Source: a virus (Duplodnaviria > Heunggongvirae > Uroviricota > Caudoviricetes). Taken from it: a stretch of DNA of 21,738 nucleotides. A model generated the notes under the pieces. It made no database searches, had not been told where the DNA came from, and saw only the letters and a program-made list of their open reading frames with translations. Positions 5,976-7,381 of the stretch are shown in pieces. The stretch is from the IMG/VR virus record IMGVR_UViG_2537561977_000011; one strand, 5' to 3'. Numbering within the stretch: position 1 is the stretch's first letter; each line of letters starts with the position of its first letter. The translations under genes were made by a program, and so were the position numbers.

Positions 5976-7381
5976 CTGACGGGTACCCTTAATGCCCTGA
6001 CCGGAACAAAGCCCGGATGAGAGATGGCATTTCGATCCAGGATATCAGTTTCACGGGACGCATCGTCGTACCATGACGCAGCCAGAACAAGCGCAGGCAG
6101 AACTTCCGCTGGCGTTCGCTCTGCGGTTTCCTCCGTCTGAACCAGACGCGCCTGAATATCCCGGTTCAGTTCTGTACGTAATGACGTCAGCTGAAAAAAC
6201 AGCCTGTCATCCGCCGTACGCCTGAGCTCCTGTTCAATCGCCGCGTTCAGCGATTCGCGTATGATGGTGAGATTTTCCCGCGTGGGTGGTTGCGCTCTCT
6301 CATCCTGTCCTGTGCTGGCTGCCACGCTGTCAAGTGCCGGATGAGAAACGTGAATAATATCGGACTGACGTTCAGTGGAACCACCAACAGCCACAACCGC
6401 CTGCTGATTTTTCACCAGGCTTCCGGGTTGTGGCAGTGAAGTGACCGCCCTTGTGGCTTCGCTGATTGCCGTCGTCCGGATGACAGCAGCCACAAGGTTT
6501 GTCTGCTGTTTTTGCCTGATAACCGATGCGGAATCTGTGGGCCACACCGCACGCGGTGCCAGTCCTGGGTCCAGCGTAATGCCGGACATTGTCGTTATGG
6601 ACTGCACCAGATCCTGTGTGTTATCCACCAGCCGGGTTCCGGCCCGCCAGGTATCCTGCAACGTATGCACAAAATCACTGGCAACCGACGGCGGCATCAG
6701 AATGACGGATAAATCGCCCTGCAGTAGTCTCGCTCCGGCAGAAACAGCCGAATTAACCATTTTGAAAGCTGTCTGAACGGTTCCCAGCATATCGGTCGTC
6801 CGGGCAATAACATCGTTCTGAATAAAGTCCGGTATTCCCGCGAGATCAAAATCGCCGAACATGTCTTCAATCAACTCATCCAGGAATACGGACGACTCCT
6901 CCAGTTTTCTGGCGGTTGCAGCTCCGGCGACCGGAAATGACAGTTCCCCGCTCTCAACAAACTGAAATGAAACCCGGCACATACGGCCTTCAGTGCCGGA
7001 GTGAGAAACGGTCACCTGCCCGTCAATACAGCCCTGCATTTCACCGAACTGCGGATGGATCAGCGTCCCCGGCCCGGCGGTTTCAATCGCTGTAATCAGC
7101 CTGTCGCGCTGCTCTGCGTAATCATCACCAACGAGATACGCATTAATCGTCAGCCGTCGCGTGGCACGCCCGAGATCTTCCGTGTACGGTTTGTCACGGT
7201 TTGGGTATTCATGGACCTGAACGCGGCGTCCGAACGAACCCTCGTCGCTCTCCACCGAAAACGGAACGCCACGAAATGAAGCGTCGTAAAGATTATCGCG
7301 CCAATTGATACCTGAAGATGCAGAAAAGAGTGAAGAAAGAGAAGGTAAAGAAGGTAAAGAAGGTAAAGAAGGTAAGTCCAT
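5972..7381 (-). CDS. DNA circulation protein N-like tail protein (Mu gp43-like) with an N-terminal (LPS)4 repeat extension
   Basis: 469-aa ORF; GGAGA lies 5 nt upstream of the ATG at 7381; contains the motif W-R-D-x-L-x-x-ASFRGVPF typical of Mu N-family N-termini; sits between tape measure and baseplate hub. Confidence 0.7.
   Translation of the reverse strand: MDLPSLPSLPSLPSLSSLFSASSGINWRDNLYDASFRGVPFSVESDEGSFGRRVQVHEYPNRDKPYTEDLGRATRRLTINAYLVGDDYAEQRDRLITAIETAGPGTLIHPQFGEMQGCIDGQVTVSHSGTEGRMCRVSFQFVESGELSFPVAGAATARKLEESSVFLDELIEDMFGDFDLAGIPDFIQNDVIARTTDMLGTVQTAFKMVNSAVSAGARLLQGDLSVILMPPSVASDFVHTLQDTWRAGTRLVDNTQDLVQSITTMSGITLDPGLAPRAVWPTDSASVIRQKQQTNLVAAVIRTTAISEATRAVTSLPQPGSLVKNQQAVVAVGGSTERQSDIIHVSHPALDSVAASTGQDERAQPPTRENLTIIRESLNAAIEQELRRTADDRLFFQLTSLRTELNRDIQARLVQTEETAERTPAEVLPALVLAASWYDDASRETDILDRNAISHPGFVPVRALRVPVR
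7332..7376 (-). repeat. 9-bp tandem repeat (plus strand GAAGGTAAA, about 4 to 5 copies) encoding (Leu-Pro-Ser)n in frame at the 5' end of the N-like gene
   Basis: Direct reading: gaagaaaga gaaggtaaa gaaggtaaa gaaggtaaa gaaggtaag; minus-strand codons TTA CCT TCT repeated. Confidence 0.85.

Follow-up and report, generated by a model that had tools for sequence, protein, structure and literature searches.

The genes of the window

The window, the whole 21,738-nucleotide stretch of DNA that was analysed, is the late region of a phiP27-like prophage with genes for HNH, TerS, TerL, portal, protease, capsid and a Mu-like contractile tail. Over most of its length it shares 96% identity with phiP27, and its identity to a prophage of E. 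coli FDAARGOS_944 is 99.8%. A complete IS1 (888-1655; InsA 943-1218, InsB 1137-1640) lies in the phiP27 L54-type tail-fibre gene, where flanking phiP27 coordinates that overlap by 9 bp reveal a target duplication of that length. The fibre region at 1-887 has only 69-83% identity to phiP27. An IS4-family element (15600-16892; transposase ORF 15619-16860) lies in the prohead protease gene and is 99.9% identical to the ISEc60 copies of FDAARGOS_944, whose prophage carries the same element in its sheath and portal genes. Since the same IS is found at different positions, the two copies of this prophage lineage have decayed independently. The major capsid gene is split on the minus strand into ORFs of 267 aa (14617-15420) and 141 aa (14195-14620). 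It contains a 1-nt homopolymer deletion at ~14721 (T5 on the plus strand compared to T6 in phiP27) and is intact in FDAARGOS_944; the deletion may be genuine, marking a pseudogene, or may be a consensus error at the homopolymer. The large terminase gene (18802-20559, minus strand) is split into ORFs of 140 aa and 434 aa, and in FDAARGOS_944 the equivalent gene carries a frameshift annotation. No nucleotide similarity to phiP27 was detected in the region 18820-21119, which indicates mosaic replacement of the terminase module. Together, the IS1 in the fibre gene, the IS4-family element in the protease gene, the frameshifted capsid gene and the split terminase gene indicate that the prophage is defective and, judging from its sequence, cannot be functional.

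The gene under study is located on the minus strand at 5972..7381 and encodes a 469-aa protein annotated as 'DNA circularization protein'. Its DNA_circ_N domain (PF07157), which is tube-like, spans residues 31-116 (7034..7291, minus strand) and scored 124.2 bits against a cut-off of 21, covering profile positions 2-87 of 88. The protein also matched PHROG 184, while no NCBIfam model matched. The best solved relatives by both sequence and predicted fold were Mu gp43/N (PDB 9ki1), a baseplate protein of phage 7-7-1 (9rku) and Milano gp25 (8fqc). To obtain the fold, the monomer was modelled with AF2 on a 54-sequence alignment, giving a model of moderate quality (mean pLDDT 66) whose top Foldseek matches were 9ki1 (E 5e-12), 9rku and 8fqc. 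The model has strands at residues 31-143 followed by helices at 153-415, which is the two-domain layout of Mu gp43, with an N-terminal DNA_circ_N tube-like beta domain and then a helix-rich C-terminal domain (PDB 9ki1, PMC11915804). There, gp43 serves as the hexameric tail tube initiator of the Mu virion (PMC11915804). Initiators of this type form a ring on which the tail tube nucleates and have a LysM module in the helix-rich domain.

The gene order on the minus strand is tape measure (7977-9926, PhageMin_Tail), tube initiator and hub (4899-5975, GpP-like/Gp44-like). The hub gene is followed by ORFs at the gp45-, gp46- and gp47-like baseplate positions, named from the annotation of relatives, and then by a Gp48-like gene. 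The tube initiator gene therefore occupies the same position as Mu gp43, between the tape-measure and gp44-type hub genes of a Mu-like baseplate module. Domain, fold and synteny all identify it as a member of the Mu gp43/N tail tube initiator family, in agreement with an earlier note on this DNA that had called the product a DNA-circulation N-like tail protein. An 80-aa ORF at 7150-7392 (minus strand, another frame) was rejected as a real gene, as it lies inside the conserved gene and is without support.

Mu N is injected with the DNA and circularises and protects the linear genome. The window protein is only about 20% identical to Mu gp43, and its host phage is of the phiP27 type, with cos ends, terminase and an HK97 head, whereas Mu is a transposable phage. 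Given the terminase and cos ends of phiP27-type phages, a role in DNA circularisation is no more than putative for the window protein. The two proteins also differ at the N-terminus, where the window protein has a Ser/Leu/Pro tripeptide tail that Mu gp43 lacks.

In many draft assemblies of Shigella sonnei and E. coli, only fragments of the tube initiator gene are present (clusters P0003, P0050, P0072 and P0149, with S. sonnei entries). In the P0149 fragment, a foreign N-terminus, MPNHDRFECQTAIDSDAILQ, is fused at residue ~200. This suggests IS insertions or contig breaks inside the gene in the fragment-bearing strains.

An exact 9-bp array follows the start codon

Directly after the ATG-GAC of the tube initiator gene lies an exact tandem array of four TTACCTTCT units, which encode Leu-Pro-Ser four times at codons 3-14 (7340..7375, minus strand). 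On the plus strand, the array reads as four head-to-tail copies of AGAAGGTAA. TRF reported it with period 9, 4.0 copies, 100% matches and a score of 72, making it the top-scoring tandem repeat of the whole window. A pattern of two units (18 nt) had three in-register matches compared to 0.00 expected from 100 dinucleotide-preserving shuffles. A second repeat search of 7200-7500 reported nothing, so the evidence for the array consists of TRF and the pattern search. The sense (minus) strand reads ATG GAC, then TTA CCT TCT four times, then CTT TCT TCA, CTC TTT TCT, GCA TCT TCA, GGT ATC AAT and TGG CGC GAT. The translated N-terminus starts MDLPSLPSLPSLPSLSSLFSASSGINWRD, and the longer read is MDLPSLPSLPSLPSLSSLFSASSGINWRDNLYDASFRGVPF. 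The array is exact and non-random. As in a coding VNTR, its copies are head-to-tail, its unit length is a multiple of three and it lies within a translated ORF.

The earlier note had described an in-frame 9-bp repeat encoding (LPS)4, and both TRF and the translation confirmed four exact copies. The range that it gave, 7332-7381, does cover the array but extends past it on either side, into part of CTTTCTTCA (7331-7339), the first of the degenerate units, and into ATG-GAC. Its 22-residue N-terminal extension requires correction, as 26 residues precede W27 and only six of these are extra compared to the closest relatives, which have 20.

Translation of the repeat

After the in-frame stop, the first start is the ATG at 7381, which is also the annotated start in RefSeq relatives. 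It is preceded by a Shine-Dalgarno-like GGAGA (7386..7390, minus strand) located 4 nt upstream. No in-frame ATG, GTG or TTG occurs between this ATG and V43, where the next in-frame start, a GTG at codon 43, falls inside the conserved domain after ASFRGVPF. Only the ATG at 7381 keeps the conserved WRD..ASFRGVPF domain, which indicates that the repeat is translated as (LPS)4.

The region upstream of the gene differs between relatives. In the window, a 160-aa gene (7428..7910, minus strand) was found by sequence comparison to be inserted between the tape-measure and tube initiator genes. It ends in an intrinsic-terminator-like hairpin with a T-run (7400..7422, minus strand), 18 nt before the tube initiator ATG. 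phiP27 lacks this gene, as do about 40 of the 51 E. coli records with this tail module, and the allele with two perfect LPS units is found only together with it. Its N-terminus, VIKPFLMTVAILTSCCAQA, resembles a signal or lipoprotein peptide. It matched PHROG 5586 (unknown function) and had no Pfam, NCBIfam or PADLOC match. The layout, with the gene's own intrinsic terminator, is moron-like, so the product could be a surface or exclusion factor expressed in the lysogen. In phiP27 and about 40 E. coli prophages, the upstream region is entirely different, with only 15 nt between the end of the tape-measure gene and the ATG.

The ATG-GAY start and the tail peptide are kept in both of these upstream contexts. 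Comparison of phiP27 with the window-type allele shows 16 differences in the 60 nt of the first 20 codons; 12 codons are changed, 8 of them synonymously. In the following 99 nt, only two positions differ. Although the tail thus lies at a mosaic junction, its sequence of amino acids is preserved. Since phiP27 keeps the amino acids and not the nucleotides, the tail is, by this comparison, constrained as a peptide. The N-termini of many homologues are much shorter (9-19 residues before ASFRGV), as would be expected if translation began downstream and the repeat were a 5' untranslated leader. However, the first alternative start is the GTG at codon 43, within the conserved domain past ASFRGVPF, the tail peptide is conserved through synonymous changes, and ATG-GAY is retained in two distinct upstream contexts. 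We therefore regard a downstream start as extremely improbable. Such a start had been named in the earlier note as one finding that would speak against its reading; the sequence up to V43 and the GGAGA 4 nt upstream of the ATG point the other way. On present evidence, the repeat is translated.

The same comparison bears on the idea that the repeat tunes translation, whereby the pyrimidine-rich UUACCUUCU would pair with the gene's own GGAGA and the copy number would set how far the ribosome-binding site is sequestered. In ViennaRNA MFE structures, GUGGAGA is indeed paired with the UCUUUAC of the repeat. Opening the SD-AUG region is predicted to cost 7.0 kcal/mol with no unit, and this rises to 9.3 kcal/mol with one unit, 8.4 kcal/mol with two and 8.9 kcal/mol with four. 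However, the step from two to four copies shifts this energy by only about 0.5 kcal/mol, the curve is non-monotonic (9.3 for one copy, 8.4 for two), and both the pairing and the energies are computational predictions. In addition, phiP27 conserves the peptide despite different nucleotides and a different leader, which argues for selection on the protein and not on RNA pairing. Translational tuning is therefore improbable.

The Ser/Leu/Pro-rich N-terminal tail

Translation, comparison of the units and AF2 pLDDT together delineate a Ser/Leu/Pro-rich tail, MDLPSLPSLPSLPSLSSLFSASSGIN, comprising codons 1-26 ahead of W27 (7304..7381, minus strand). It contains the exact array and three degenerate units, LSS, LFS and ASS. 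The phiP27 and window-type lineages share five degenerate tripeptide units, [F/L]PS-LPS-LSS-LFS-[S/A]SS, and the 9-nt units of the tail match TTACCTTCT at 5-9 of 9 positions. This suggests that the whole family-specific extension may have arisen by older expansions of the TTACCTTCT unit.

The length of the tail is strikingly constant among relatives. Exactly 27 residues precede ASFRGV in all 29 phiP27-family N-termini examined, compared to 33 in the window; counted to the W, the numbers are 20 in relatives and 26 in the window. Other enterobacterial homologues have only 9-19 residues before ASFRGV, for example MAFFSSTGWRDRL. The N-terminal extension claimed earlier is real, but most of it is a conserved feature of the phiP27 family and not a product of the array. 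The closest relatives, phiP27 L48 (NP_543100.1) and its E. coli and Shigella orthologues (WP_000365505.1 and others), represent the same gene, with 95-100% identity beyond codon 20, and have the same five-unit degenerate tripeptide tail. They differ from the window protein in being 463 aa long, with one perfect unit plus imperfect ones (phiP27) or two perfect units, whereas the window protein is 469 aa long with four.

Two E. coli clusters, P0134 and P0144, have the N-terminus MDFPSLPSLPSLFSSSSG, in which a third PSL triplet is present through a point substitution of S to P with no change in length. As some phiP27-type alleles gain a PSL triplet by substitution alone, tail composition drifts at a fixed length. 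The strict length in relatives, always 20 residues before the W, suggests that length may matter in a working phage.

Residues 1-6 and 8-24 of the AF2 model have a pLDDT below 50, and no secondary structure precedes residue 27. The tail is thus predicted to be a flexible, disordered arm ahead of the tube-like beta-barrel domain. The Mu structure paper (PMC11915804) reports nothing on the N-terminus of gp43 from which a position of the tail, in the lumen or on the exterior, might be read. We give only a small chance to the proposal that the Ser/Leu/Pro tail is a functional arm under strict length selection, contacting for example the C-terminus of the tape measure or the first tube ring, or that the repeat is an internal anti-Shine-Dalgarno that sets initiator stoichiometry.

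Copy number of the array in E. coli and Shigella

Copy number across related prophages and strains, the comparison recommended in the earlier note, was determined by exact-sequence look-ups in which synthetic variants of the window protein were compared with a collection of about 15 billion proteins. On the identical protein backbone, the 2-copy allele was found on 341 contigs and the 3-copy allele on one, EIF6041664.1 of Shigella boydii. Versions of this backbone with one, five or six copies were absent from the collection, as was the window's own 4-copy protein, so that four copies were seen in the window alone. At least 1000 contigs have two copies on a Shigella sonnei sister backbone with one E->K change, for which exact look-up found neither a 3-copy nor a 4-copy version. 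For six other backbones, 3-copy versions were absent by the same look-up, and 4-copy versions were absent for the five submitted. Two copies are thus present on eight distinct protein backbones and on >1,300 contigs, while three and four copies occur once each, both on one backbone. The non-2 variants amount to roughly 0.1% of contigs.

The DNA sequences gave the same picture. The S. boydii contig ABCVUG010000178 has exactly three units and, besides the 9-bp gap, two mismatches to the window over 4.9 kb. When the window (four units), this contig (three) and E. coli FDAARGOS_944 (two) were aligned, the array differed by whole units only and the flanks were identical. All 11 complete E. coli genomes with the window-type allele align to the window with an 18-bp gap and therefore have two units, as do all nine IMG/VR contigs that matched a variable-gap pattern. 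This pattern had no match among GTDB species representatives, which cannot address within-species variation, as Shigella is folded into E. coli there. A search of the plasmid collection gave no match either. A scan of metagenomes for three or more units returned 95 loci, none with the ATGGAC...CTTTCTTCA context or the ASFRGV motif, and these were rejected as copies of the gene and taken to be unrelated microsatellites. The same scan of IMG/VR returned 11 loci, all unrelated. A literature search for the unit in all rotations returned unrelated eukaryotic papers only, and no MLVA locus of this kind is described in the searchable library. With no paper there mentioning the unit, the locus appears to be undescribed, though of a well-known kind.

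As the alleles differ by whole units with conserved flanks, these comparisons indicate that the locus is a genuine VNTR with alleles of two, three and four units, of which the variants are rare. The earlier note had anticipated that copy number may vary and that changes of a 9-bp unit would keep the frame. Both expectations held, in a 2/3/4 series with otherwise identical flanks in which all alleles are in frame, with variation being rare (two units on >1,300 contigs, three once and four once). The pattern fits stepwise slippage from two to three to four units in one lineage and not a hypermutable locus.

We considered whether the four units could be a sequencing or assembly artefact, that is, a long-read, mis-assembly or consensus error at a locus that truly has two or three units. 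The absence of the exact window protein from about 15 billion sequences would be in keeping with this, as would the capsid gene's loss of 1 nt from a homopolymer, seen against both phiP27 and the 99.8%-identical FDAARGOS_944 prophage and typical of consensus errors. However, the insertion consists of exactly two perfect units, and an exact, in-register 18-bp insertion is atypical of consensus errors. Moreover, a 3-unit intermediate on the same backbone is carried by an independent assembly, demonstrating that the locus does change by whole units. An artefact is therefore unlikely.

Phase-variable contingency loci of Haemophilus and Neisseria have a repeat at the 5' end of the coding region and are presumed to vary by slippage. 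The window locus shares this classical layout, a tandem repeat at the 5' end of a structural gene, and has 2-, 3- and 4-unit alleles, as might be expected of an adaptive contingency or antigenic-variation locus whose frequent copy changes adjust tail function or help to escape a host factor. In contrast to those loci, its unit is a multiple of three within the ORF, so there is no frameshift switch between on and off and all alleles are in frame. Nor was polymorphism seen at high frequency, with two copies on >1,300 contigs and eight backbones and the variants once each on one backbone. The tube initiator is buried at the centre of the baseplate (PMC11915804) and is therefore not a surface antigen, and the window prophage, by its sequence, cannot make particles. 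Taken together, these observations make an adaptive contingency locus highly improbable.

Probable expansion of the array and its significance

The explanation that we favour, and consider likely, is a real expansion, by slipped-strand mispairing or by an 18-bp duplication, of an in-frame coding VNTR that has no regulatory role. The starting state would have been two perfect 9-bp units (LPS-LPS), the norm for this phiP27-like allele. Replication slippage would then have produced four units (+18 bp, +6 residues), probably stepwise via a 3-unit allele, and the longer array would have lengthened the flexible, disordered Ser/Leu/Pro-rich tail before the tube-like beta-barrel domain. Slippage is most likely the mechanism of expansion; a single 18-bp duplication in place of two slippage steps is equally possible. 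Because the unit is a multiple of three and the copy number is low, the repeat cannot switch the gene on and off, and its instability would be weak.

The expansion is most likely neutral, without functional consequence. Alternatively, the six additional residues could be mildly deleterious, given that tail length is strictly conserved in all relatives. Because the tube initiator gene lies in a defective remnant and is under relaxed selection, its disordered tail would tolerate six inserted residues. The locus resembles in-frame coding VNTRs of the MLVA type in its exact units, whole-unit alleles, identical flanks and preserved frame. Compared to these, its copy number (2-4) and polymorphism (about 0.1% of contigs) are very low, making it a poor typing marker.

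The significance of the finding is small: a rare length polymorphism, of two, three or four LPS units, in the tail of a Mu-type tube initiator in phiP27-like prophages of E. coli and Shigella. It also gives reason for caution with the annotation 'DNA circularization protein', which here is attached to a tube initiator whose low-complexity tail is specific to the family. A possible role of this tail in tail assembly is hinted at by its conserved length in intact relatives; if the tail were a functional arm, changing the number of repeats could retune tail assembly or break it. LPS copy number may serve as a lineage marker within one lineage of Shigella/E. coli prophages.
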